Shown here one piece after another: positions 1 to 55,920 of a stretch of 64,000 nt of DNA. Location: assembly GCA_002269645.1 (NCBI GenBank), contig NIVC01001500.1:213935-277934 (forward strand), read 5' to 3'. The number at the start of each line of letters is the position of its first letter. Position 1 is the first letter of the stretch. The DNA is from Macrostomum lignano. Lineage: Eukaryota. The position numbers and the translations under genes were made by a program. The notes below the pieces were generated by a model, which saw only the letters and a list, made by a program, of their open reading frames with translations, had not been told where the DNA came from and did no database searches.

Positions 1-1378
1 AGTTAATAAATTTTTGTTTATTAATACCTTTAAGATAAAATGGTTTTAATTCCCCATCCGCCATTTTAGCCATTAATAACACAATTGGATATTTTATGTC
101 GAGGTTAAAGTGTGCAGCAATTATCTCGTATTTTGTGTTTTCTTTAAAATTGTCTGGTTCTAATTTAAATGCTGCGCATAAATCCTTAATGTATTTAGCA
201 TGGTCGACTTCTTTCTTGTTTTTTTCTATATATGTTTGTATTACTTTTCTTTGTTTTGCAATAGTAATAGTTTTCTGGTGCTCTTGTTCTACAGCTTCTA
301 ATTCTTCTGCAATCTTTGCAAGTGGTTTTAAGAATGGGGTTGTTATATTATTAATCTCTGTAAATTTGTAAATTGGGGGTGCTGTGGCATTCTTTCTAAC
401 TCTTAACACTTCTGGTTTTATATTTTCTGTGCTAATTAATCCCAGCTCTTCTATATTAACATCTTTTGGAATTTTTGCATAAAGCGATGTGCTCTGTGTA
501 AAAAATGTTTTTCCTTGCTTTAAAAATGTTTTATGTGTGCAATTAACGATGGCTTTATTTTTTGGGTCTTGTTCCAATAGGAGGACATTAATGGGGAGCT
601 GGTTATAACTACATGCTGCGATTGCATAATTTAAAAAACTCTCTTTATGCTCTTCTGTTTTATCCACAAGCTTTATCTGTGTACCAATTATCTTACTCGT
701 TAAGGAATTGCCATAATAAGCTATTTGTAAAAAGTCTGGAGATTTAACTATGCAAGAATTAACTATCTCGTTAGAAATTTTACTCCACATTTTAGTAAAG
801 GATACGGAATAAAATTGTAGATATTGTAAATGTTCCTTTTGTTGCAATATAACATCCGTCGCATCTAATAATGGATTAAAGAGTCTGTTATTACCAAAGT
901 AGTTATAATTATAAATTGTTGCTTCCAACCGTGTAAAACCATGCTCCTTAGCAAGTGGATTTAAGAATGTTTCTTTTAATCGTTTATCTGGACAGTTAAT
1001 AAAATTATAAATGTTATTACCAAGAGTCTTTGTTACTCCTCCGGATGTTAGTTGGCAGACAAATTTATTATATATCTTTATCCGACAATTAGAGTATAAC
1101 CAAGTAAGGCAGTCCCTTCCAACAGTTCTATCGTTAGAAACTATTTTGTACTCGTTAGAAAAGATGGCACTAAGTGTGTCCATCGCCTCGTATTTATTAA
1201 AAATACCATTTAAATCTTGTGTTATATCGAAGTCCAACAAATAGTAATAGTCTTGCTTAAGATGTTCTAATAATTGTGGTAATTTATTTAAAAGTTCTTT
1301 TAATTGTATGTCTGCTAATTCTACCTTGTAGGTAACTCCAACATAATCCTTTCCAAAGTTTGCATTAATTCTGTCCAT
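1..1378 (-). CDS. ORF of at least 459 aa running off the window start, with Rep_trans-like (rolling-circle initiator) motifs; absent from the ORF track
   Basis: Hand translation from ATG 1378 is stop-free to base 1: MDRINANFGKDYVGVTYKVEL...LLDFDITQD...RDCLTWLYSNCRIKIYNKF...HGFTRLEATIY. The ORF itself is well supported. The family call rests on the order of motifs DxxxD / IYxK / RxE only. Confidence 0.75.
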   Translation of the reverse strand, partial: MDRINANFGKDYVGVTYKVELADIQLKELLNKLPQLLEHLKQDYYYLLDFDITQDLNGIFNKYEAMDTLSAIFSNEYKIVSNDRTVGRDCLTWLYSNCRIKIYNKFVCQLTSGGVTKTLGNNIYNFINCPDKRLKETFLNPLAKEHGFTRLEATIYNYNYFGNNRLFNPLLDATDVILQQKEHLQYLQFYSVSFTKMWSKISNEIVNSCIVKSPDFLQIAYYGNSLTSKIIGTQIKLVDKTEEHKESFLNYAIAACSYNQLPINVLLLEQDPKNKAIVNCTHKTFLKQGKTFFTQSTSLYAKIPKDVNIEELGLISTENIKPEVLRVRKNATAPPIYKFTEINNITTPFLKPLAKIAEELEAVEQEHQKTITIAKQRKVIQTYIEKNKKEVDHAKYIKDLCAAFKLEPDNFKENTKYEIIAAHFNLDIKYPIVLLMAKMADGELKPFYLKGINKQKFIN

Positions 1379-2370
1379 GTCTTTTGCGATAACCTTTCTA
1401 ATTCCTGCAATCGTCTGCTGGTTAATCGAATCCTCGTGGTGTTGGTATGTAAATTTAGTGCTTGTTTTGCCTTTACAGAATGTGGTTGTGTTACAAAATC
1501 GCGAAAGGCGTCTCGAATAATCGAATTGTAGGCTCCAGTTAGTTGTTCGGTAATTAAAAATCTGGTTGGAATTACATCTCCTTCTTTGTAGTTTCTTATC
1601 GATCGTGCAGATGTTATTTTAATAAGCATTATATTATCGCAAAATATATCGGTTAATGCTACTTGGTCTTTTAGTTTTGGTTCTTTATATGTGTAGTCGA
1701 TTTTACCGACGTCGGATAAAAGGTTATTTTGCTTTAGGTTTTCGATTAGTAATTTGTGCCCTATTCTCTCGAGCAGGGTTTTATCGGTTCCAGATCTAAG
1801 TCCAAAAGCTTTGGGGTCGATTTGGTTTTTCTCTAGTGGGCGTGTTGGTTCTATTGGTTGCTGTGTTGGTTCTATTGGTTGCTGTGTTGGTTCTGTTGGT
1901 TGCTGTGTTGGTTCTGTTGGTTGCTCTATTTCTTCGTCGGAGTCTTCGTCGGAGTCTTCGTCGGAGCGATCTTCTATTTCCTCTGTTTCCTCCATGCTAT
2001 CTTCTATATCTATTATTAGTTCCTCTAGTTCCTCGTTGGAATCGTCTGGAATAAGTTTGCTAATCTTTGTAAGATAATTAGTACCTATTTCTAGCATTTC
2101 CTTTAGAAGAGTAATATCTCTTGTTATGGTTGCCATCGATATGGAACATAACCACGTGTTTATCCCATCTAATATATTAATATTATTAATATCCTTTAGC
2201 TGTTTATCGATTAAAACATTTAAATTATATATATTTTTTTCTATTTGTGGCTCTATGGTGTAATGCGATATAGAGATATCTATTAACCTATTAATATTTA
2301 TTATTTCTTTTTTTATGGAATGTAGTAAGATTTTGTCGAATTGGTTTTCGCTAAAATTATTTGTGTCCAT
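1321..2370 (-). CDS. Hypothetical protein (about 349 aa) with acidic tract and QQP(T/I)EPT repeats
   Basis: Long ORF with ATG at 2370 (MDTNNF...). Internal 21-bp repeats (1845-1925) and 12-bp repeats (1930-1965) are in frame. Confidence 0.7.
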   Translation of the reverse strand: MDTNNFSENQFDKILLHSIKKEIININRLIDISISHYTIEPQIEKNIYNLNVLIDKQLKDINNINILDGINTWLCSISMATITRDITLLKEMLEIGTNYLTKISKLIPDDSNEELEELIIDIEDSMEETEEIEDRSDEDSDEDSDEEIEQPTEPTQQPTEPTQQPIEPTQQPIEPTRPLEKNQIDPKAFGLRSGTDKTLLERIGHKLLIENLKQNNLLSDVGKIDYTYKEPKLKDQVALTDIFCDNIMLIKITSARSIRNYKEGDVIPTRFLITEQLTGAYNSIIRDAFRDFVTQPHSVKAKQALNLHTNTTRIRLTSRRLQELERLSQKTWTELMQTLERIMLELPTR

Positions 2371-2404
2371 TTTTATAGATAAAAAAATTAACAATTTCTT
2401 ATTT

Positions 2405-3064
2405 TTAGATATCTGTTTCCTCCGGTGTTGGTAGAAGGCTGTTAATATCTTCTACTATTTCTTTTAGTAATTTAATATTATTATGTAGAAATATAAGATC
2501 TTCTTTAACTTTATTTCTTATCTCCTTCGGGTCGTACCGTAAGTTCGCAGCGTTTGTCCTATCGGGCGAAGGCCGCGACCCTTCGGGGCGATCGTTTGTA
2601 AAAGTAAGTAAATAATTAACCATTTGTTTAATCTGTTGGAGCTTAGTACCATATTGTATGGTTGTAATAATTCCCGCTTTATATAAACTTAAAGATTCTT
2701 TATAAATTCTTTTTTGTCTTTCTGCTTCCGTTTGGACTTTTTCTTTCTTTTCTTTTTCTCTAATTTTAATAACATATTGGTTAGTTGTAGACCATAATTC
2801 TGTTAACAGATATATGCTGTTATTTAATATTGCAATATCTAAGCCCTCCATCCAGTCTTCTAAACCATCTGGAATTTGCTTCTGCATCTCTGTATTGTTT
2901 TTTAATAATGTACTTAACTCTTTTAGAGATTGTGGTAGTTGTGGCAAAATGCGATTGCAGTCTATCGATCCTTCGATGGTGGCCTTTATTTTTTTTATTG
3001 CTCTTTTTAACATTTTTAAAGTGTGTTTATCGCAGTGGTTACCGCCAAAATTATCTCTGTCCAT
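2405..3064 (-). CDS. Hypothetical helical/coiled-coil protein (219 aa) of the element
   Basis: ATG-initiated ORF, co-oriented with and 35 bp from the next gene, with AT-rich codon usage. Confidence 0.7.
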   Translation of the reverse strand: MDRDNFGGNHCDKHTLKMLKRAIKKIKATIEGSIDCNRILPQLPQSLKELSTLLKNNTEMQKQIPDGLEDWMEGLDIAILNNSIYLLTELWSTTNQYVIKIREKEKKEKVQTEAERQKRIYKESLSLYKAGIITTIQYGTKLQQIKQMVNYLLTFTNDRPEGSRPSPDRTNAANLRYDPKEIRNKVKEDLIFLHNNIKLLKEIVEDINSLLPTPEETDI

Positions 3065-3102
3065 TTTTATGGAAAAAAATTTAAAGTTTTAGAGGTAGTA
3101 TG

Positions 3103-4913
3103 GTTTCCGGTTGCTATTGTGGATTCCGGTTGCTGTTATGGATTCCGGTTGCTGTTATGGATTCCGGTTGCTATTGTGGATTCCGGTTGCTATTGTGGAT
3201 TCCGGTTGCTGTTATGGATTCCGGTTGCTGTTATGGATTCCGGTTTCTGTTATGGATTCCGGGTTCTGTTATGGATTTTGGTTTTTGTTATGGATTTCGG
3301 TTGCTATTGTGGATTCTGGTTTCTATTGTGGATTCCGGTTTCTGTTATGGATTCCGGTTTTTGTTATGGATTCCGATTACTAATATGGCTTCCGGTTTCT
3401 GTTATGGATTCCGGGTTCTGTTATGGATTTTGGTTTTTGTTATGGATTTTGGTTGCTATTGTGGATTCCGGTTTCTGTTATGGATTCCGGTTTTTGTTAT
3501 GGATTCCGATTACTAATATGGCTTCCGGTTTCTGTTATGGATTTTGGTTGGTGTTATGGATTCCGGGTTCTGTTATGGATTCCGGTTTCTGTTATGGATT
3601 CCGGGTTCTGTTATGGATTCCGGTTTCTGTTATGGATTCCGGTTTCTGTTGTGGATTCCGGTTTCTGTTATGGATTCCGGTTTCTATTATGGATTCCGGT
3701 TTCTGTTATGGATTCCGGTTTTTGTTATGGATTCCGATTACTAATATGGCTTCCGGTTTCTGTTATGGATTCCGGGTTCTGTTATGGATTCCGGTTTCTG
3801 TTATGGATTCCGGGTTCTGTTATGGATTCCGGGTTCTGTTATGGATTCCGGTTGCTATTGTGGATTCCGGTTGCTGTTATGGATTCCGATTACTAATATG
3901 GCTTCCGGTTTCTGTTATGGATTCCGGGTTCTGTTATGGATTCCGGTTTCTGTTATGGATTCCGGGTTCTGTTATGGATTCCGGTTTCTGTTATGGATTC
4001 CGGTTTCTGTTATGGATTCCGGTTTCTGTTATGGATTCCGGTTTCTATTATGGATTCCGGTTTCTGTTATGGATTCCGGTTGCTGTTATGGATTTTGGTT
4101 GGTGTTATGGATTCCGGTTTTTGTTATGGATTCCGATTACTAATATGGCTTCCGGTTTCTGTTATGGATTTTGGTTGGTGTTATGGATTTTGGTTGGTGT
4201 TATGGATTCCGGTTGCTGTTATGGATTTTGGTTGGTGTTATGGATTTTGGTTGGTGTTATGGATTCCGGTTGCTGTTATGGATTCCGGTTGCTGTTATGG
4301 ATTCCGGTTGCTGTTATGGATTCCGGTTGCTGTTATGGATTTCGGTTGCTATTGTGGATTTCGGTTGCTATTGTGGATTTCGGTTGCTATTGTGGATTTC
4401 GGTTGCTATTGTGGATTTCGGTTGCTATTGTGGATTTCGGTTGCTATTGTGGATTTCGGTTGCTATTGTGGATTTCGGTTGCTATTGTGGATTTCGGTTG
4501 CTATTGTGGATTTCGGTTGCTATTGTGGATTTCGGTTGCTATTGTGGATTTCGGTTGCTATTGTGGATTTCGGTTGCTATTGTGGATTTCGGTTGCTATT
4601 GTGGATTTCGGTTGCTATTGTGGATTTCGGTTGCTATTGTGGATTTCGGTTGCTATTGTGGATTTCGGTTGCTATTGTGGATTTCGGTTGCTATTGTGGA
4701 TTTCGGTTGCTATTGTGGATTTCGGTTGCTATTGTGGATTTCGGTTGCTATTGTGGATTTCGGTTGCTATTGTGGATTTCGGTTGCTATTGTGGATTTCG
4801 GTTGCTATTGTGGATTTCGGTTGCTATTGTGGATTTCGGTTGCTATTGTGGATTTCGGTTGCTATTGTGGATTTCGGTTGCTATTGTGGATTTCGGTTGC
4901 TATTGTGGATTTC
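3103..4913. repeat. 19-bp minisatellite, about 95 units (GGATTTCGGTTGCTATTGT and variants)
   Basis: Variant units at 3103-4335 (GGATTCCGGTTTCTGTTAT etc.) and a homogeneous perfect run at about 4336-4913. Confidence 0.97.
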
Positions 4914-5785
4914 GGTACGATCGAGCCGAAGGTTCGCGTGCCTATGGTGCGATTCTGTGGACGTTAGTTTGGAGCTTATGTGGAATTAATTATGGATTTA
5001 TGTGTTATTTTTGTGGATTAAAAATTTTTGGATTTAGATATTGTTTTTTATGGAGGCTTTTTTAATTTTCTTTTGCGATTTGTATGTTTTTATAACGATT
5101 TTAGCTGTTTTAAGACATTTTTGCTTTCGATATGGCAAATTTTGCTGTTTTTAAAATCGGTTTTTTTAAGCCTAAATTTTGCGATTTTTTGGTGTTTTTA
5201 GCGATTTTTAAGCCATTTTTGCTAATTTTAAGCTGTTTTTTAAACACCCAATTTCGCCGAAACTGAAAAGGGTGGGGGGTGTTAAGTGCATTATTTGATT
5301 AGATGTATTAATGGTGTTTAGATGTGTTTTTTTATTTACCCCCCGTGTCCCCCCTCTAGACCCTCAAAACGGTCATTAAAAAAGTGCTCTGGGTCCAGAA
5401 GCGTCTTTTTCTATACTACTTAAGTAGGTTGATATATTACATTCAAAATATAAACAAAAATGCTGTTCGTAGTAATACAAAATAAAACAAAAACACAGGA
5501 TCGATGGGGAGAATGAGGAAAAGCAAACGGGAATACAAGACAATTGACGAACTTACCTAAAATGGCTGAAGCGCCTCGTCATCTAATTGAAAAAAAAACT
5601 CGCCACTCAGCATGCATAATGAAATGAAAATCAGCGAGATTGTTAAAAACAACTAAAATAATTAGCCGCTCAATCAGTCTGATCGGCGTTTTGTTTTTTT
5701 GTCGTCATTTTCCGAATTGCTCTCGACGACTTCGTTGACGGGACCAGCCTGGGCGGGGTCATTAGGAAATGGGATTGTGTTCAGA

Positions 5786-5929: not shown

Positions 5930-5952
5930 CGATGAATGAGCCGACAATTCAC

Positions 5953-6374
5953 CTGCCAAAGTCCAGATATGCCACGTGGCCGTGAACCATCATTGGCTGC
6001 ATCTCTCGCCAACCAGTGAGATTGTGCACCAGAGCCGCCTGATTGGCCAGCGTCAGCACGTGCTGATTACGGCTGGTACTAATGTGAATCACGTGAATCT
6101 GGTTTGACCAGCACAGATCGTACGCCATGTTAACAAAACTTGTGCTGCCAGTTTTAGGTACCCGATTGTAGACTATTAGACTTGGAATCGAACTTTTTGA
6201 CTGTTGGATTGGCGAATTAAAGGTCTGTACAACTTGATGGGGCTGAGACTGAGGCTGCTCATCCAGACGATTTCGGCTAAGGGTCACGATGAGCAGCAGA
6301 CAAATCAGGCAGACGGCTGCCACAGGCCAACGCTGTCGCCAAACGAATGAACAGAAACGAACCATAGACGGCAT
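5953..6374 (-). CDS. HS2ST1: Heparan sulfate 2-O-sulfotransferase, first coding exon
   Basis: Type II membrane anchor, then IVYNRVPKTGSTSFVNMAYDL (5'-PSB motif) and HGHVAYLDF. Donor AG|GTGAAT at 5953/5952. Confidence 0.92.
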
Positions 6375-9737: not shown

Positions 9738-9744
9738 TGCTCAC

Positions 9745-10092
9745 CTGTACGCAGGCCATATAAGGTAGGGCAGGTTGTTAGTAAGCAGGCTGACCAAGCC
9801 AGGCGGCAGTGTCAAGGCCTCTGTAACGCAGAGCCTATCCGGTATGAGATGTCGCAGAGCCCTGCAGCTAAGCGCCTGCAGAGTGATTGGCAGACTAAGC
9901 GCCCGGATTAGTTTAACGCCACTCTTAGCCGCCGTGCTGCACACGGCCGGATACATTGGCGCCTTGAGACCGCGAGCGGCCACGCCAAGGCACTGGCGAT
10001 TTAGAAAATAGGTAAGGGTGCCGTGCCAGAGGTCCAGGAGGAGGCCAACAATGGCGCCTTGGCCGAATGGTCTGCAGAATTCGCGTTTTTGC
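9745..10092 (-). CDS. SPSB3: SPSB3-like gene, exon with SPRY C-terminus and SOCS box
   Basis: FGQGAIVGLLLDLWHGTLTYFLNRQCLGVAA...YPAVCSTAAKS...LQALSCRALR...LPPGL. CTCAG acceptor, GTGAGC donor, phase 2-2. Confidence 0.93.
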
Positions 10093-10184
10093 CTGAGGCG
10101 CGATTTCAAGAGGATAGGGGAGTTCTTTTCATTTGTTTCGAGGCGCAAAACTGGGTTTAGGATACTTGAACACTTGCATATATG

Positions 10185-10924
10185 GCGCCAAAATGAGTAG
10201 CAGTTGGCGCTAAAATGAGTACTAGGGAGCTGCCAAAATTGGTACAGGGAGCCGCCAAAATGAGTACCAGGAAGCTGCCATAATGAGTACCAGAGAGGCG
10301 CCAAAATGAGCACCAGAAAGCTGCCAAAATGAGTACCAGAGAGCTGCCAAAATGAGTACCAGAGAGCTGCCAAAATGAGTACCACAGAGCTGCCAAAATG
10401 AGTACCAGAGAGCTGCCAAAATGAGTACCAGAGAGCTGCCAAAATGAGTACCAGAGAGGCGCCAAAATAAACCCCAGAGAGGCGCCAAAATGAGCACCAG
10501 AGAGGCGCCAAAATGAACACCAGAGAGGCGCCAAAATGAACACCAGAGAGGCGCCAAAATGAGCACCAGAGAGGCGCCAAAATGAACACCAGAGAGGCGC
10601 CAAAATGAGTACCAGGGAGGCGCCAAAATGAGCAACAGAGAGGCGCCAAAATGAGCACTAGAGAGGCGCCAAAATGAGTACCAGGGAGCCGCCAAAATGA
10701 GCACCAGAGAGGCGCCAAAATGAGCACCAGAGAGGCGCCAAAATGAACACCAGAGAGGCGCCAAAATGAGTACCAGGGAGGCGCCAAAATGAGTACCAGG
10801 GAGCCGCCAAAATGAGTACCAGGAGGCGCCAAAATTAGTGACAAGAAGACGCCAAAATTAGCACCAGAGAGGCGCCAAAATGAGCACCAGAGAGGCGTCA
10901 AAATGAGTACCAGGGAGCCGCCAA
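10185..10924. repeat. 23-bp minisatellite (GAGAGGCGCCAAAATGAGTACCA), about 32 units, in SPSB3 intron
   Basis: Direct reading. Confidence 0.96.
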
Positions 10925-11070
10925 GCTTGTTACTTAGACACAAAATATCGCCTGTAAAACATTATCAACTGTATATGAATATTTTTATTTCTTAATCGAG
11001 GAAGGAGACAAGCTAGGCATACACGCTCTGACACAATTATTTATGAAAGAAAAGAAAAACAAATCCTCAC

Positions 11071-34251: not shown

Positions 34252-35382
34252 CCCAATGAACCACCAGACGTCGAACTGACGTCATATTTAGGTCTAAATT
34301 GGTCGGTTTGGTCGGGCAGTTCTTTTGGTTAGTTTTATAAGTCTTATGGACGTTCAACCGACGTTAAAGAAAAAAGCAACTTTTTTGACTAGTGTAAGAA
34401 AAATAGAATTGCTTAAATCGAAAGATGGAAAAAATAAAAAGGAAATATATTATGTTTTTGCTTAGTCTGTTAAGACGAAAATCATAGCGAATATTTTTAT
34501 GAATAGTATTTCTTATAACGGACAAATTTCAAACGAAAATTTTACCACATTTCGCTCTTGCAATGTTTGCATGCTTTGAACTTTGAAGACTGTCCTGAAT
34601 TATTATACTGAAATATTTTCAGATACTATTTATTCTAAAGAAAATAACCTCTTAATATCATTATTTATCTACTACAATAACAATGAAGAGAATGAGCTAA
34701 CGTTATCAGTTTCAGTATATATATAATTATACTTATCTTAGGCCTATGACTTATGAGTTATTAGAACTTATGATATTAATAGCATACTTATAGAAAAAAA
34801 AATTGACAAAATTCTTTGTGGTTTTGCTAATAAGAGTTTATTTATTAAAATAAGATATATATATAGGTTAGCTTTATGGCCTTGGGCTTGGCTTTACACT
34901 TAAAAAGGTTGTTAGTAGGCCTATGCTAGAAATTTCCAGCTTATCAATTGACAGTTTAACTATTTGGGAACTTTTAACTTTTAGGGACTTTTAGGGACTA
35001 TAATAAAGGTCCCATGATTTGCCAAACAATAAATATGCAGAGAGTAGAGAAGACTAATAGTATTTGCAACTAAGTTTTGCAATCTAAATTACAGAAAGCA
35101 TTAAAATATTAATTACTTAAAAAAACTATGATGCTTAAAAATATATGCTTTTGCTTTTGCAGGTTAAAATTGAAAAATTGGTTGGCCTACATTTTATTTA
35201 GCTTAGGCCTATACTAAAACACTAGGCCAATATAATTTTTTTTCAATTTCAACTAAGCATTTTCTGTCTTAAAACTATTTGAATATCTTTCAAAATCTCA
35301 TTGGAGACATTATATAAACCATTAGACTTCTAGTAATAATTTTGTTTTTAATTTTTTGTTTCAGATGTTTTAATTAGGCCTA

Positions 35383-37317
35383 ATGGATTTATCTAATGAA
35401 CGTCAAAGACAAAGATCAATAAAAAGAAAGGCAGATACACTTATTTCTGAGGTGCTTACTGATGAAACCAATAGTCAAAATGAAGTCAATGATAATGCTA
35501 ATATCTCTAAGGAAACTTTGGCTAATACTAATACTACTAGCATTATAGAATTAGATTTATCAACTGACTATTATTATCCAGAGTCAAGTGAAGAAGATGA
35601 AGATGAAGATCCATTATCAAAAAGTATTGGTTTTAATGAGACACTTAAAGAGTGGGCAATCAAATTTAATATAACGCATGCCGCTACTTCAGAATTATTG
35701 CAATTACTTTCAAGTCATATTCCAAACCTGCCTAAGTCAGCAAGGTCCCTTCTAAGCACACCACGAGTTAATAATATTACTATTCTTGGCTCTGGAAAGT
35801 TTGTATATTTTGGCCTTGATGAGATCAAAAAAAAGATACCACAAAATAATAGAATGTTTTCAAAGCTACAAGTGCAAATCAACATTGATGGACTCCCTAT
35901 TTTTAAAAGCTCAAAGCAAGAATTTTGGCCTATTCTTGGTGCAGTTGGTTCTAGTGCACCATTTGTTATTGCAGTGTACTTTGGACCTGGTAAACCTATG
36001 CTTGAAGCATTTTTAACTCAGCTAATTTGTGATTTGAAAGAAATTGAAGACTATGTTAGCTTAATATTCATTTGTGATTCACCAGCTAGAGCTTTTATTA
36101 AAGGTGTTAAGCATCATAGTGGCTATTCATCATGTGATAAATGCACTGCTTCTGGAACTCATGTAGGTCATGTTGTATTTGATGAAATGACTAGTGCACT
36201 TCGTACAGACAAATCATTTCAGGACATGGAAGATGAAGCACATCATAATCAAGCATGTCCTTTATTGGAACTTAAAATTGATATGATAAATAGTTTTCCA
36301 TACGACTATATGCACCTAGTATGTCTAGGTGTAATGCGACGTTTGCTTCTTCAGTGGATGCAAGGAGATCTTCCAAACAGGCTTCCAAGTAGAGTTGTCA
36401 CTCAGATTTCAGATTCTCTACTTTCATTTGTGCCGTATTTTCCAACAGAGTTTGCTCGCAAGCCAAGGTCACTCTCTGAATTAAAGTTTTGGAAGGCTAC
36501 AGAATATCGAACCTTTTTGCTATATTCTGGTATTGTTGCATTGGCTTCCAATCTTCCAACATCATGGTATCAGCATTTTTTGCTACTTCATGTGGCTATT
36601 TCAATACTTTGCAATCCAGCCGTGTCTCTTCAAAGGGCTGATTATGCTTCTGAGTTACTATATTTGTTTGTCAGCTGTTGCAAAGAACTTTTTGGTAAAA
36701 AAATGCTTGTATACAATGTACATAGTCTTTTGCACTTGGCAAATGATGTAAAGTTGCATGGACCACTGGATGGATTCTCTGCCTTTAAGTTTGAGAACTA
36801 TATGCAAACAATTAAGCGTAAGCTAAGAGCTAAACATCTACCACTAGAACAGCTATGCAATCGACTCACGGAAGAAAAGCAAGTGACTTCAAGTGCCAAT
36901 AGTAAAGAAACTAGCAATGACAGCATAAAAGCAAAGTTCAAGTATTTGTTTTCACATTCAGCAGGGCCACTTCCACCTTCATTAACTTCAGAGTATGATC
37001 AGTACAGTGCAGTTCAAACAGACAAATTTCGGTTTTCTACTCATCCTAATGACTGCCATATTATTGACCTAAAGAAGAACTGCTTTCGAATTGTTAATAT
37101 TGTCAATACAACTAAAGGCCCAGTTTTTATTTGCAAAAAGTACTTGAAAGTTCAGTCATTTTTTGAGTATCCAGTTGATTCACAGCATCTGTCAATATTT
37201 AGTGTTTCTGATCTGTCTGATGAGCCTCAATATGTTGTCGACATAGGCCAAATTTCTGCTAAGTGTGTTGGATTGCCTCACATGAGCAGTATTATTTTTA
37301 TTCCTCTACATTCTTAA
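35383..37317 (+). CDS. EnSpm/CACTA-type transposase (644 aa, intact)
   Basis: INIDGLPIFKSS, FICDSPARAFIK, CDKC, FPYDYMHLVCLGV, WKATEYRTFLLY, YNVHSLLHL, SAFKFENYM. Confidence 0.93.
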   Translation: MDLSNERQRQRSIKRKADTLISEVLTDETNSQNEVNDNANISKETLANTNTTSIIELDLSTDYYYPESSEEDEDEDPLSKSIGFNETLKEWAIKFNITHAATSELLQLLSSHIPNLPKSARSLLSTPRVNNITILGSGKFVYFGLDEIKKKIPQNNRMFSKLQVQINIDGLPIFKSSKQEFWPILGAVGSSAPFVIAVYFGPGKPMLEAFLTQLICDLKEIEDYVSLIFICDSPARAFIKGVKHHSGYSSCDKCTASGTHVGHVVFDEMTSALRTDKSFQDMEDEAHHNQACPLLELKIDMINSFPYDYMHLVCLGVMRRLLLQWMQGDLPNRLPSRVVTQISDSLLSFVPYFPTEFARKPRSLSELKFWKATEYRTFLLYSGIVALASNLPTSWYQHFLLLHVAISILCNPAVSLQRADYASELLYLFVSCCKELFGKKMLVYNVHSLLHLANDVKLHGPLDGFSAFKFENYMQTIKRKLRAKHLPLEQLCNRLTEEKQVTSSANSKETSNDSIKAKFKYLFSHSAGPLPPSLTSEYDQYSAVQTDKFRFSTHPNDCHIIDLKKNCFRIVNIVNTTKGPVFICKKYLKVQSFFEYPVDSQHLSIFSVSDLSDEPQYVVDIGQISAKCVGLPHMSSIIFIPLHS

Positions 37318-52449: not shown

Positions 52450-54786
52450 CTAGCACACTGACCTTCCGGACCCTTCAGATTGTGAATCCACTTCAAGTTG
52501 TTGTGATCCTTTCGCAAGCAGAATCTTCTTCCGGCCAGATAGTACCGATACTTGACCATGAACGTCACCACCGCCAACAGCTCTACTCTCATCGTGCAAT
52601 AGTTCCGCTCTGCCGATGACAGCGATCTTGAGCCATACTAAATAACCTTGCTTCTGAGACAACACAGCGCCAATGCCGATGGATGAGCTCGCATCTGTGT
52701 CGAGGATGAACTCACCAGCCTCGGGACCAAAATCCGGAAACGCCATCACATCTGTACTCGTCAGCCGCGCTTTCAAGTTCCGGAACGATCGCTCATCGTC
52801 CGGTCCCCACTCAAACTCGACACCTTTGCGAGTCAACCTGAGCAGCGGCTCGGCAACACTCGAGAAGTTTTTGATAAATCGGCGATAATAGCTGCACAAT
52901 CCCATGAACGATTGCCCGTCTCTGGTGTTCTTCGGTTGGGGCCAGTTTCTGATCACTTTGACCTTCTCGCTCTCCGTCTCCACTCCTGCCTCCGACACCT
53001 GATGGCCCAGGAACGTTACCTTCTTCATCAGAAAATGACACTTCTCTGGCTTCAACTTCACTCCAGCCTTCCGCAGCCGAATGAACACCTCTTCTAACCT
53101 TTCTAGATGCTCGTGAACCGTCTTGGACCACACGAGGATATCGTCCAGGTAGATTAAGCACGTCTTCCAGGCCACGTCGCGCATTGCTAGAGCCATCAGC
53201 CGCGTGAAAGTTGCAGGGCTATTGACGAGTCCAAACAGCATCACTTTCCACACGTACTGACCCTTCAGAGGCACCGAGAAGGCCGTCTTGAGTTGATCCT
53301 CCAGTCTTACTTTCACCTGCCAATAGCCGCTGTGGAGGTCCATCGAACTAAACACTCTTGCTCCCGCCAGTTCGTCCAACGCATCGTCCAACCTCGGCAA
53401 CGGAATAGCATTTCTCGTCGTTACTTTATTCAAACCACGGTAGTCTACACACATCCGTAGGCTGCCATCCTTCTTGCGTACACAAACGATTGGAGCGTTC
53501 CAAGGAGACTGCGCTGACTCGATGCGTCCCTGCTCCTCTAGCTCATCCACGAGAGCATGCACTTCTTGCCTAAGGTGCGGGGGCAGTCTTCGCGGCGGGA
53601 TGTTGACCGGCTTGGCCTCTCCAGTGTCGATCTGGTACTCCACCAAGGGTGTCACACCCAACTGTGCTGAGTCCGTCACGAAAAGATCACCATACGAGTC
53701 GACTAAGTCCTTAAACCGCCGACGCTGCTCCTCAGTCGTCATTCCGTCGCCCCACTTGCCGAGCTTCTCAAAAACTTTGTCCTCTTCGAGTTCCTCGGCC
53801 TTATCTGTCCTGCTGGGACGTTCCTTGGAATCGCTCTGCAACGCCGCGATCCTTGGCTGCTCTTCCAGTTCCAGCGGTCGATACCAGCCAACAGCCTCTC
53901 CTCGCCGCAACCGCACCGGTTGCTCTGATAGGTTGCAGACACGAACCACAATCTTTCCGCTCTCGTCTGGTGTCACAAGCGCTCTCGCGGCAACCACCCC
54001 AGTTCCCTTGGGGTGCTTCAACGGATCCATAATTCCTGCTACTCGGACATTTCGACCTCCCCTCGTATCCAGTCGGCCGAGCAGAACCGCCTCGTGGCCT
54101 GGTTTAACCGTTGCTGTATCATTCAGGCGAATCCGGCACGCCACTGGTCGCTCTCGTTGGAACCGGATGGGAAGCACTACATTCCTGAGTCGCAGCTCTG
54201 CTCTGGCATAATCGATTTGGCAGCCGTGCCGTTGCAGGAAATCCGAACCCAGCACGAGGTCGTAATCAATACCCGACACTACCAGCTCGTCGATAGGCAC
54301 CTTCTCATCAATTTCTAAGTCCAACGTGGTGACACCAATCACTTGAATGGGGCTGCCATTTGCAGTCGTGACTTTGGCGAATGACCCCCGGAAGAGCTCT
54401 GGTTTGTGCCGCAACCGTGAGAACATCGCCTCCGACATGATGGTACACGAGGCTCCCGAGTCCAACAGCGCTGAAACGTGATTATCTTTGGCAATCTTTA
54501 TACTCACATAGACTGACGTCGGGACGATGTTGATGGTGGCCTGTGAAATACTCGGATTCAGAATGGTGCTAGATGCTCTAGTTAGCGGTGTCGCAGCCGG
54601 TGCAAACGACGATGAAGCAGCAGGTGGAATGGTTGATGACGCAAGAGGTGGGACGATTGATGCCGCAACAGGTGGGACGACTGATGACGCAGCAGGTAGG
54701 ATGATTGATGACGCAGCAGGTGGGACGACTGATGACGCAGCAGGTAGGATGATTGATGACGCAGCAGGTGGGACGATTAATGACAC
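52450..54786 (-). CDS. Gypsy pol: aspartic protease, reverse transcriptase, RNase H start
   Basis: ALLDSGAS; RMCVDYRGLN; SMDLHSGYWQV; IYLDDILV; ILDTDAS. Confidence 0.93.
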   Translation of the reverse strand: MSLIVPPAASSIILPAASSVVPPAASSIILPAASSVVPPVAASIVPPLASSTIPPAASSSFAPAATPLTRASSTILNPSISQATINIVPTSVYVSIKIAKDNHVSALLDSGASCTIMSEAMFSRLRHKPELFRGSFAKVTTANGSPIQVIGVTTLDLEIDEKVPIDELVVSGIDYDLVLGSDFLQRHGCQIDYARAELRLRNVVLPIRFQRERPVACRIRLNDTATVKPGHEAVLLGRLDTRGGRNVRVAGIMDPLKHPKGTGVVAARALVTPDESGKIVVRVCNLSEQPVRLRRGEAVGWYRPLELEEQPRIAALQSDSKERPSRTDKAEELEEDKVFEKLGKWGDGMTTEEQRRRFKDLVDSYGDLFVTDSAQLGVTPLVEYQIDTGEAKPVNIPPRRLPPHLRQEVHALVDELEEQGRIESAQSPWNAPIVCVRKKDGSLRMCVDYRGLNKVTTRNAIPLPRLDDALDELAGARVFSSMDLHSGYWQVKVRLEDQLKTAFSVPLKGQYVWKVMLFGLVNSPATFTRLMALAMRDVAWKTCLIYLDDILVWSKTVHEHLERLEEVFIRLRKAGVKLKPEKCHFLMKKVTFLGHQVSEAGVETESEKVKVIRNWPQPKNTRDGQSFMGLCSYYRRFIKNFSSVAEPLLRLTRKGVEFEWGPDDERSFRNLKARLTSTDVMAFPDFGPEAGEFILDTDASSSIGIGAVLSQKQGYLVWLKIAVIGRAELLHDESRAVGGGDVHGQVSVLSGRKKILLAKGSQQLEVDSQSEGSGRSVC

Positions 54787-54915
54787 AACAGGTGGGACTA
54801 TTTGGGATGCAACAGGTGAGATGATGAGATGATTGATGACGCAACAGGTGGGACGATTGATGACGCAACAGGTGGGACGATTTATGACGCAGCAGGTAGG
54901 ATGATTGATGAAGAG
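54590..54915. repeat. 24-bp tandem repeat at the gag-pol junction (SIILPAAS/SVVPPAAS)
   Basis: TGATGACGCAGCAGGT(A/G)GGA(T/C)GA(T/C) units. Confidence 0.9.
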
Positions 54916-54979
54916 TTAAATGTCACCTGATCCCTTCTCCTCGACGGCTCCATTTGGGGGCGTACCTGACCTCCGGGGC

Positions 54980-55920
54980 TCACTTCCCCCACTGCGGGCC
55001 CCGCTCTCCATTTCCCTCCGCGCGACACTTGGCAGCCACGTGACCAAGTTTGCCACACCGGTGGCACCGAATGCCGCGTCCCGCTTGAGCTCCTTGGTGC
55101 GGACCTCCGGCTCTCTTCCGACAGCGGTTCGCCATGTGCCCCTTCTCATGACAGTTCCAACATTCCACATCGCTGTGTTGATTCGCTGGCGCTGGTCTCT
55201 GAGAACCCTTCCCTCCGCCAGATCCTGACGCCTGACTCTGCCGTAGCTGCCGTTCCTGCTCCTCTATCCTGGCCCGCAGAGCGCCGACGTCCTCTTGATT
55301 TGCCTCCCCGGCTGCGCCCACAGCGTTGAACGCCGCCGTCTTGCCTCGGCCCGGCTGCCCCACGTGGGCCGCTCGAATTGCTGCGTCCAGCTGCCGGGCA
55401 CTCCTGATCGCAGCAGCGAGACTCTCCGGCTGGCTAAGAAATAATTTCTCCCGGACTGACTCGGCTACTCGCACACCTTTCATGAACCGGTCCTTGGCCA
55501 GCTCCGACCTCGCGTCCTGATCAATCGTCGGATAGGCGTTCCGGACTATCTCGAGCAGGGCGTCACCGTAGGCCTCCTTCGACTCCTTCTGATCTTGGTC
55601 CCGTCCCGCCAGCTCCAACCTGAAGTCCTGCGGAGTCCGATGCTGCGTGAACCTGTTCCGCAGATGCTCAGTGAACTCCTCATACTCCAAACCATCCGCC
55701 AGATTAAGGTTGTCCACCGCGATATAAGCTGTGTTGAGATCCAGCAGACTCATCAGATGTGGCCTTCGCCTCACAGAATTCGTTGAAACTCCTCAACCAC
55801 AGGCGAAAATTCATCCCAGTCACATACTTCACCGGCTTTGCCACTCTTGGAGGCCCATGGTTCAAATTCTAGCGCAGCCTGTCCGTCAGCGCACCAATCA
55901 GGTCATCGATACCAGCCATG
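54980..55920 (-). pseudogene. Gypsy gag with two CCHC zinc knuckles (one stop and one frameshift in the 5' part)
   Basis: CWNCHEKGHMANRC and CHRCGKLGHVAAKC; probable ATG at 55920 (MAGIDDL...). Confidence 0.88.

Follow-up and report, generated by a model that had tools for sequence, protein, structure and literature searches.

The window analysed here is a 64,000-bp stretch of one contig (G000:C1500:213935-277934). It begins within a palindromic element of 15,501 bp (C1500:203854-219354), which consists of two arms of 7,394 and 7,279 bp and an 828-bp spacer between them. The arms differ from each other at 4 of 7,260 aligned bases, in addition to two satellite length changes and one frameshift. 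From the end inward, each arm contains a 125-bp Polinton-type end, ~380 bp of unique DNA, a 19-bp satellite, a 219-aa ORF, a 977-aa gene (called the Rep gene below), a 440-bp direct duplication of the 3' end of this gene, and two ORFs of 133 and 132 aa on the opposite strand. The 132-aa ORF begins in the spacer and is truncated in the left arm. The features are as follows, in window coordinates.

1..5420, minus strand: part of the right arm inside the window; the left arm, the spacer and three more small ORFs are outside
1..1439, minus strand: 3' part of the right-arm Rep gene, which continues to C1500:213372 outside the window; carries D382, D386, Y434, K436, R481 and E483
1226-1228, 1214-1216 and 1070-1072, minus strand: codons of D382, D386 and Y434 (D51, D55 and Y103 in the original prediction)
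1064-1066, 929-931 and 923-925, minus strand: codons of K436, R481 and E483 (K105, R150 and E152 in the original prediction)
1440..2370, minus strand: 5' part of the right-arm Rep gene, with the start codon, an acidic low-complexity N-terminal extension and D245
1636-1638, minus strand: codon of D245, the predicted counterpart of RepDE D46
2405..3064, minus strand: 219-aa ORF that is weakly paralogous to the N-terminal extension of Rep (30% over 103 aa, E 4e-4)
2561..2594, minus strand: GC-rich double-hairpin cassette of 34 bp within the 219-aa ORF; 32 of 34 bases are those of the cassette in the Polinton ATPase gene
3099..4916, no strand: 19-bp satellite, 95.7 copies; one tract within each arm
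5296..5420, minus strand: Polinton-type end (AGTAGTATAG...), whose identity to the first 125 bp of resident Polinton ends is 94-100%
5421..5426, plus strand: right copy of the 6-bp target-site duplication, present as a single copy in two empty alleles (C2311 and C40)
5949-6374: host sulfotransferase exon (Sulfotransfer_2)
9741-10961: host SPRY/SOCS-box protein exon
35374-37317: frame of 647 codons that weakly matches DUF4218 and is probably a gene of a DNA transposon
52450-55792: LTR retrotransposon with gag zinc knuckle, protease, reverse transcriptase and RNase H

No Pfam family was above the cut-off for the 219-aa ORF. The spacer contains a 112-aa ORF that corresponds, as a stand-alone paralogue, to the final domain of the 977-aa protein (E 4e-6) and matches 89 domains among 257 collected proteins. 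Three 19-bp repeats and a GC-rich hairpin are also found in the spacer. The simplest reading of the palindrome is a unit of ~8.2 kb whose first 7.3 kb was copied back.

Insertion site and validity of the palindrome

Identical six bases border both ends of the element. The two empty alleles have left flanks of 99.9% and 87.6% identity. The element is a genuine and recent insertion. The element lies 530 bp past the host sulfotransferase exon, and as this exon ends at a splice donor, the insertion site is probably in an intron. Motif scans revealed no next host exon. The matches of neighbouring host frames to a sulfotransferase and a SPRY domain make an animal the likely source of the genome.

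Fold-back reads can produce very long, near-perfect inverted repeats, and the junction between the left arm and the spacer is absent among the contig pieces listed. An assembly artefact is nevertheless scarcely credible as the origin of the palindrome. The two flanks are different host DNA, which is joined exactly in two empty alleles; the arms differ in the 4 bases and in satellite length; and contigs from three of the four sequencing runs span the junction between the right arm and the spacer.

There is one complete element in the genome, plus one decayed fragment of 830 bp. Contig depth for arms versus spacer was 83 versus 33 in run X1 and 11-12 versus 7-8 in run X5, values that do not represent copy number. 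In another study, one run yielded contig pieces that deviate from this copy by as many as 14 of 171 bases but preserve the small-gene junction. These diverged sequences indicate that related members of the element exist.

The 977-aa gene

The minus-strand frame at 2-1378, which had been predicted from the window, has no stop codon and runs off the window edge. The probability of 459 stop-free codons by chance at the local composition is ~1e-17. The motifs LDFDITQD, CLTWLYSNCRIKIYNKF and GFTRLEAT are present at their predicted positions. The acidic motif reads DxDxTxD, not the RxDxAxD of Rep_trans. The frame of at least 459 codons is real, but it is part of a larger gene, in which the Met at 1378 is an internal residue (M332). 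The gene of the right arm starts at 2370 on the minus strand and encodes 977 aa.

A search of the 764-Mb assembly found the same 459 residues once more, 4.5 kb outside the window and on the opposite strand. This second copy is inside a 1004-codon frame and corresponds to an unbroken 977-aa gene in the other arm (G000:C1500:207018-209951). The window copy has one frameshift near 1440, and its first 331 residues are in another frame, starting at 2370. This frameshift is seen in the right arm only. It is probably an assembly error, because contigs from all four sequencing runs cross the site without a gap; contigs drop variants, so this is not proof. D245, the first of the predicted metal ligands, is not contained in the 459-aa piece.

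Resident Polinton family and sequences shared with the element

The first 125 bp of the element have at least 38 other matches in the genome (40 of 210 candidates were scored). All 17 ends that were followed run into Polinton genes, and the size of this family is 17.7-18.3 kb. Matches of 270 bp to the end were considered as MITEs and rejected, as they are Polinton ends. The family encodes an rve integrase and an A32 ATPase (Pox_A32), both above the Pfam cut-offs, an endonuclease VII domain of its own, and a 1327-aa protein with polymerase-B motifs. The 1327-aa protein had no match in the library search, and its assignment as a putative polymerase B is by motif. Capsid and protease genes are assumed to be present, from size and place.

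AG...CT ends and a 6-bp duplication are hallmarks of Polintons/Mavericks, and 6-bp duplications were observed in two of the three copies having both ends. The young copies are C326:102324-120579, C4439:26245-43951 and C632:23545-41452, with at least 35 more ends. Within the terminal repeat of ~300 bp, the first 82 bp recur as an internal inverted copy, and there is also a GC hairpin. The gene for the integrase is located at either end or exchanged between copies.

Besides the ends, the element and the Polinton family have three features in common. The 133-aa ORF has 78% identity with a gene that occupies a variable slot in some Polinton copies, the start-codon context AAAA-ATGG is common to both, and so is the 34-bp hairpin cassette. 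All element ORFs of at least 60 aa between the satellites were used as tblastn queries against seven stretches of the helper, the resident Polinton. Only the 133- and 132-aa ORFs matched, and no Polinton core gene was found in the element by this search. Polymerase and integrase genes were likewise not found by Pfam and PHROG searches. A module of capsid, packaging ATPase and protease was not found in the tblastn comparison, and the ORFs other than the Rep gene are at most 219 aa. No helicase family, including SF1, and no Walker A pattern was found in the element.

The AGTAGT terminus that had been predicted is at 5420, and both ends of the element read AGTAGT. The description as a Polinton-ended element holds for AGTAGT and the 125-bp ends, but not for a self-sufficient element: the ends are borrowed from the resident family, and no integrase, polymerase or capsid gene was found.

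Distribution and conservation of the protein family

A word-seeded search found 24 relatives of the 977-aa protein, of which full-length ones are ~780 aa and show 37-44% identity. A profile search against 1.84 billion representatives yielded 977 clusters at E of 0.001 or below, 611 at 1e-10 and 237 at 1e-30. Most of the relatives, among the best 150 of 977, are on contigs of 2-8 kb. The named hosts are Schistocerca americana, Planococcus citri, Cacopsylla melanoneura, Laodelphax striatellus, Aphis glycines, the parabasalid Tritrichomonas musculus and the ciliate Tetrahymena utriculariae. Two relatives are under bacterial MAG labels, one being an insect endosymbiont and the other a 3.6-kb contig. 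Both labels are likely contamination. The 3.6-kb contig, which gave the one match among GTDB genomes, resembles a metagenome locus and is likely misbinned.

No relative was found in any of six protein scans of IMG/VR; these were pattern-seeded, so absence is not proven. There were no relatives among 50,697 phage and 72,556 plasmid records. Searches of Pfam, PHROGs, PDB by sequence and ESM Atlas gave no informative match. A TBP match in the PDB sequence search was rejected as a poly-Gln artefact.

Conservation was determined for the 120 of 169 collected proteins that cover the core, this protein included. Y434 and K436 are present in all 120. K432, G478 and R481 are present in 119, D382, T384, D386 and E483 in 118 each, R430 in 116 and K349 in 114. 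D245 is present in 105, and the remaining 15 have gaps. Position 380 is Asp in 95, and the preceding strand reads CLTW. The Tyr and acidic residues pointed out originally, with their Lys and Arg, are nearly invariant in these homologues. YxK is found in all 14 rows of the set including insect, parabasalid and ciliate members. A FastTree phylogeny places this protein together with the insect sequences in a clade of 29 members (support 0.99).

The predicted non-HUH nature of the family agrees with the alignment. The H-hydrophobic-H pattern was seen in only one of 87 near-full homologues, and the conserved columns lack a His pair. The Walker A pattern was seen in four of the 87 and is absent from this protein.

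The decayed 830-bp fragment of the Rep family (C578:203017-203881) shows 72% DNA identity, and a search for its ends found none. Its differences are 61/274 (22%), 38/274 (14%) and 133/273 (49%) at codon positions 1, 2 and 3, a pattern that indicates past selection on the protein.

Several members are in unusual contexts. Proteins P0215-P0256 comprise ~25 variants, many truncated, from ENA contigs of 12-550 kb. They are Tritrichomonas-related and may form a repeat family within a single eukaryote genome. In Planococcus, there is a tandem gene cluster (LOC135836840, 843 and 844), and the Aphis gene model is fused to a piggyBac transposase. Small C2H2 zinc-finger ORFs, under the Pfam cut-off, adjoin Rep in two unrelated metagenome loci (L060:2895-3311 and L063:2388-2819). 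In the metagenome contig L055 (45-1804), the N-terminal region of Rep is duplicated in inverted orientation (87-89% identity, 600 bp), perhaps another fold-back.

Predicted fold and active site

The model of residues 191-977 has a pLDDT of 81, and the model of the domain at residues 231-525 has a pLDDT of 92 and a pTM of 0.90. In a Foldseek search of 350,542 chains with this domain, 4CWE, 4CWC and three chains of 4CIJ (RepDE-type and RepSTK1) ranked 1 to 4 and 6, with E values from 2.6e-3 to 2.4e-2 and a best probability of 0.93. TBP was next. No PDB structural match to the domain reached an E value of 0.001 or better. RepDE and RepSTK1, to which the protein had been tentatively linked, lead the list, and a TBP/Rep_trans-like fold is predicted from the model.

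The profile did not support membership of PF02486, the Rep_trans family proposed in the original prediction: it matched neither the protein, nor any of 50 family members, nor anything in the genome. The hhalign probability against pT181 RepC was 0.4%, in a weak test with one partial RepC as target.

Rep_trans has the TBP topology, as described in PMC4797284. In RepDE, the same source gives D46, D142 and E214 as metal ligands and Y191 as the nucleophile, and R189, K193, D146 and R212 are also conserved. In the 977-aa protein, D245, D382, E483, Y434, K432, K436, D386 and R481 are arranged in the RepDE order and are on predicted strands. From the starts of the VIA-align alignments, D245 is in register with D46/D9 within one residue. 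The position of RepDE R189 is occupied by Lys (K432). RepDE R140, A144, T176, Y178 and G180 have no like residue here, and K349 may replace R140. It is predicted from the model that D245, D382 and E483 bind metal and that Y434 is the nucleophile, forming a 5'-phosphotyrosine.

With VIA-align, the Reps gave middling scores (Z 6.3-7.1, rmsd 5.4-6.0), and TBP (Z up to 7.8) tied with or exceeded them. TBP chains top the VIA-align lists (Z 7.8-8.8 depending on the model), as would suit a non-catalytic TBP-like DNA-binding or transcription factor. Such a function is quite improbable. The Reps align over more residues (168-179 versus ~150) and are above TBP in Foldseek. The invariant Asp, Asp, Glu, Tyr, Lys and Arg are the active-site set of Rep, and this set, not the fold, separates the two, which argues for an enzyme. 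The protein is very probably a tyrosine nickase, judging from the modelled active site. It is predicted to work like Rep_trans and yet to represent a separate family.

Residues 743-860 and 898-977 resemble OB folds (Teb1, POT1, HIN, RPA and LEF-3). The matches are individually weak, with Foldseek E values of 1e-3 and worse in PDB and 6e-4 for LEF-3 in BFVD, and Z of 4-5. The homodimer prediction for residues 234-730 scored 0.00, with the alignment unused.

Comparison with known systems

Rep_trans (PF02486) includes pT181/pC221 RepC, RepD and RepDE, RepSTK1, inovirus Reps and MOBT relaxases. The predicted TBP-like fold and the order and spacing of D...DxxxD...(R/K)xYxK...RxE are in common with these proteins. 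The distance from Asp to Tyr is 49 residues in RepDE and 52 here (Asp382-Tyr434). In contrast, the Rep_trans profile is unmatched, RxDxAxD is replaced by DxDxTxD, and the interval from Tyr to Glu is 26 residues longer here. At ~800-1000 aa, the proteins of this family also comprise a middle domain, a long helix and a fused pair of OB-like folds, and their named hosts are mostly eukaryotes.

Rep-Arvir (DUF7845/PF25227) of archaea is a TBP-fold nickase linked to Rep_trans by structure only, like the protein here, and has three acidic residues and a Tyr in common with it (PMC13107129). It differs in having KHYYM instead of YxK. Rep-Arvir also has a winged helix after the catalytic domain; in the whole-protein model here, strands, a long helix and OB-like domains were seen and a winged helix was not. 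PF25227 had no Pfam match in the protein or in 50 family members. In ICESt3, the Rep_trans-type relaxase RelSt3 is accompanied by two OB-fold proteins, OrfL and OrfM (PMC12614216), a similar combination. There they are separate genes and serve conjugation, whereas here the OB-like folds are fused, with one additional stand-alone copy.

Polintons/Mavericks encode a protein-primed polymerase B and a retrovirus-like integrase (PMC5499653). The element shares AGTAGT ends, the 6-bp duplication, a small gene and the start-codon context with Polintons and their non-autonomous derivatives. Unlike Polintons, it has no detected protein-primed polymerase, integrase, ATPase or capsid gene, but has its own predicted replication protein; and instead of ~300-bp repeats with an inner inverted copy of the end, it has 7.3-kb arms without such a copy. 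Transpovirons are also small, linear, capsid-less and virus-dependent, with inverted ends, but as described in PMC5499653 they code for a fusion of an SF1 helicase with an inactive polymerase and travel with mimiviruses, whereas the element has a predicted nickase and Polinton ends. Helitrons, Replitrons, CRESS viruses and parvoviruses are eukaryotic elements with a tyrosine nickase, but of the unrelated HUH fold. Helitrons are not known to make a 6-bp duplication. The element is neither an HUH element, nor a transpoviron, nor an autonomous Polinton, and its protein is not Rep-Arvir.

Possible life cycle of the element

The element would be a capsid-less and integrase-less passenger with Polinton ends. 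In all likelihood, the integrase of the resident Polinton inserted it. For replication, the metal-dependent nickase would bind a hairpin origin, nick it via Y434 and remain bound to the 5' end. Because the element has no polymerase, extension of the 3' end is ascribed tentatively to a polymerase of the host or helper. Replication by strand displacement could be of the rolling-circle or rolling-hairpin type, and the two C-terminal OB folds and the stand-alone OB protein would hold the displaced strand, as two OB-fold proteins assist RelSt3 (PMC12614216). A fold-back copy of the ~8.2-kb unit during synthesis would lead to an inverted dimer, which would have the two Polinton ends required by the helper integrase. 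That the nickase replicates this element as a satellite is, as a single step, reasonably likely; the full mechanism of a Polinton-dependent satellite replicated by a tyrosine nickase has a slightly better than even chance.

The GC-rich hairpin of the spacer, beside the three 19-bp repeats, is a candidate origin. No pT181-like nick hairpin was found in the element, and the hairpin just 3' of the Rep stop has a 6-bp stem (49 of 200 shuffles were as good). In two of six metagenome loci, perfect stems of 15 and 13 bp were found just 3' of the Rep stop (0 of 200 shuffles). AT-rich near-perfect hairpins just 3' of the Rep stop in three metagenome loci (L058:2693-2751, L063:2020-2048 and L054:2627-2665) recall the downstream origin hairpin of Rep-Arvir.

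Several points are against the satellite mechanism: the single complete copy, the lack of a helicase, the asymmetric gene-bearing centre and the lack of a detected nick site. The 828-bp centre with its gene, and the left arm ending in a gene, are unlike the clean hairpin expected from a rolling-hairpin dimer. The main rival is a one-off chimera, in which a nickase gene from some other replicon became linked to a Polinton end, and a fold-back and a single insertion followed. The gene would then be cargo of a non-autonomous Polinton derivative, copied from its ends by the helper polymerase. The 125-bp ends would be enough for the helper polymerase and integrase, just one complete copy exists, the fold-back cuts through a gene, and the homologues in short metagenome loci have no link to Polintons (in 15 such loci, Polinton ends and hallmark genes were not recognised). 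However, the gene, the hairpin cassette and the start-codon contexts in common with the Polinton imply longer co-residence, and the older decayed copy and the diverged pieces in another study represent more than one member. A one-off origin is unlikely on this evidence.

The cassettes bear on another role for the nickase. They are GC-rich mini-cassettes of ~30 bp, with two stems of 4-5 bp and 3-nt loops, linked by CG. Examples are at C326:107971-108004, C1944:206939-206990, C87:134001-154000 and window 2561-2594. They are sometimes in tandem, their stems are altered on both sides, and others are in frame in further genes. A 23-mer of the cassette has 72 exact matches in the genome, compared with none for the reversed control. 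The cassettes look like mobile mini-elements, and REP-associated tyrosine transposases are thought to move REPs. The nickase could similarly move the double-hairpin cassettes, or resolve inverted dimers, of which the element itself is one. The active-site evidence would be the same, and the cassettes are polymorphic for presence: at the ATPase site, an in-frame cassette is found in 15 of 17 Polinton copies, and another site is occupied in 7 of 17. Such a resolvase or mobiliser is improbable, as the cassette is missing from all 15 metagenome loci of the Rep family, Polintons have an endonuclease VII domain of their own, and the fused OB folds would fit strand displacement, by analogy with the proteins described in PMC12614216. 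Replication of the element as a satellite is the preferred role of the nickase.

Novelty of the family

We know of no eukaryotic rolling-circle element that uses anything other than an HUH enzyme. A full-text literature search, covering titles and abstract openings largely of open-access journals, found no eukaryotic family of TBP-fold nickases. Rep_trans is apparently restricted to bacteria and DUF7845 to archaea (PMC13107129, 2026). In the passages concerned, PMC13595969 refers to initiators with the TBP fold only in connection with viruses of bacteria and archaea, and PMC11296320 speculates on a non-HUH nickase for such elements and does not name one with the TBP fold. The large, eukaryote-associated family of predicted Rep_trans-like nickases is apparently undescribed, and it accounts for hundreds of unannotated 800-aa proteins.

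If this eukaryotic branch is true, TBP-fold nickases occur in all three domains, and the branch would inform how the Rep fold relates to TBP. The element would also provide a concrete example of a parasite of Polintons; the Polinton life cycle was experimentally uncharacterised as of 2016 (PMC5499653). It is a more tentative proposal, with chances below even, that capsid-less satellites hijacking the ends and integrase, and perhaps the capsids, of Polintons form a widespread eukaryotic class from parabasalids and ciliates to animals. In this reading, the class would be built on rolling-circle nickases of the TBP fold that carry fused OB folds and form a third family, a eukaryotic one.

The full model also matched A0A2N9QVX7 in BFVD, which is termed a viral TBP in PMC13107129, and there was a weak match to an iridovirus-like protein of 775 aa. 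Either of them could be a further member of the family.
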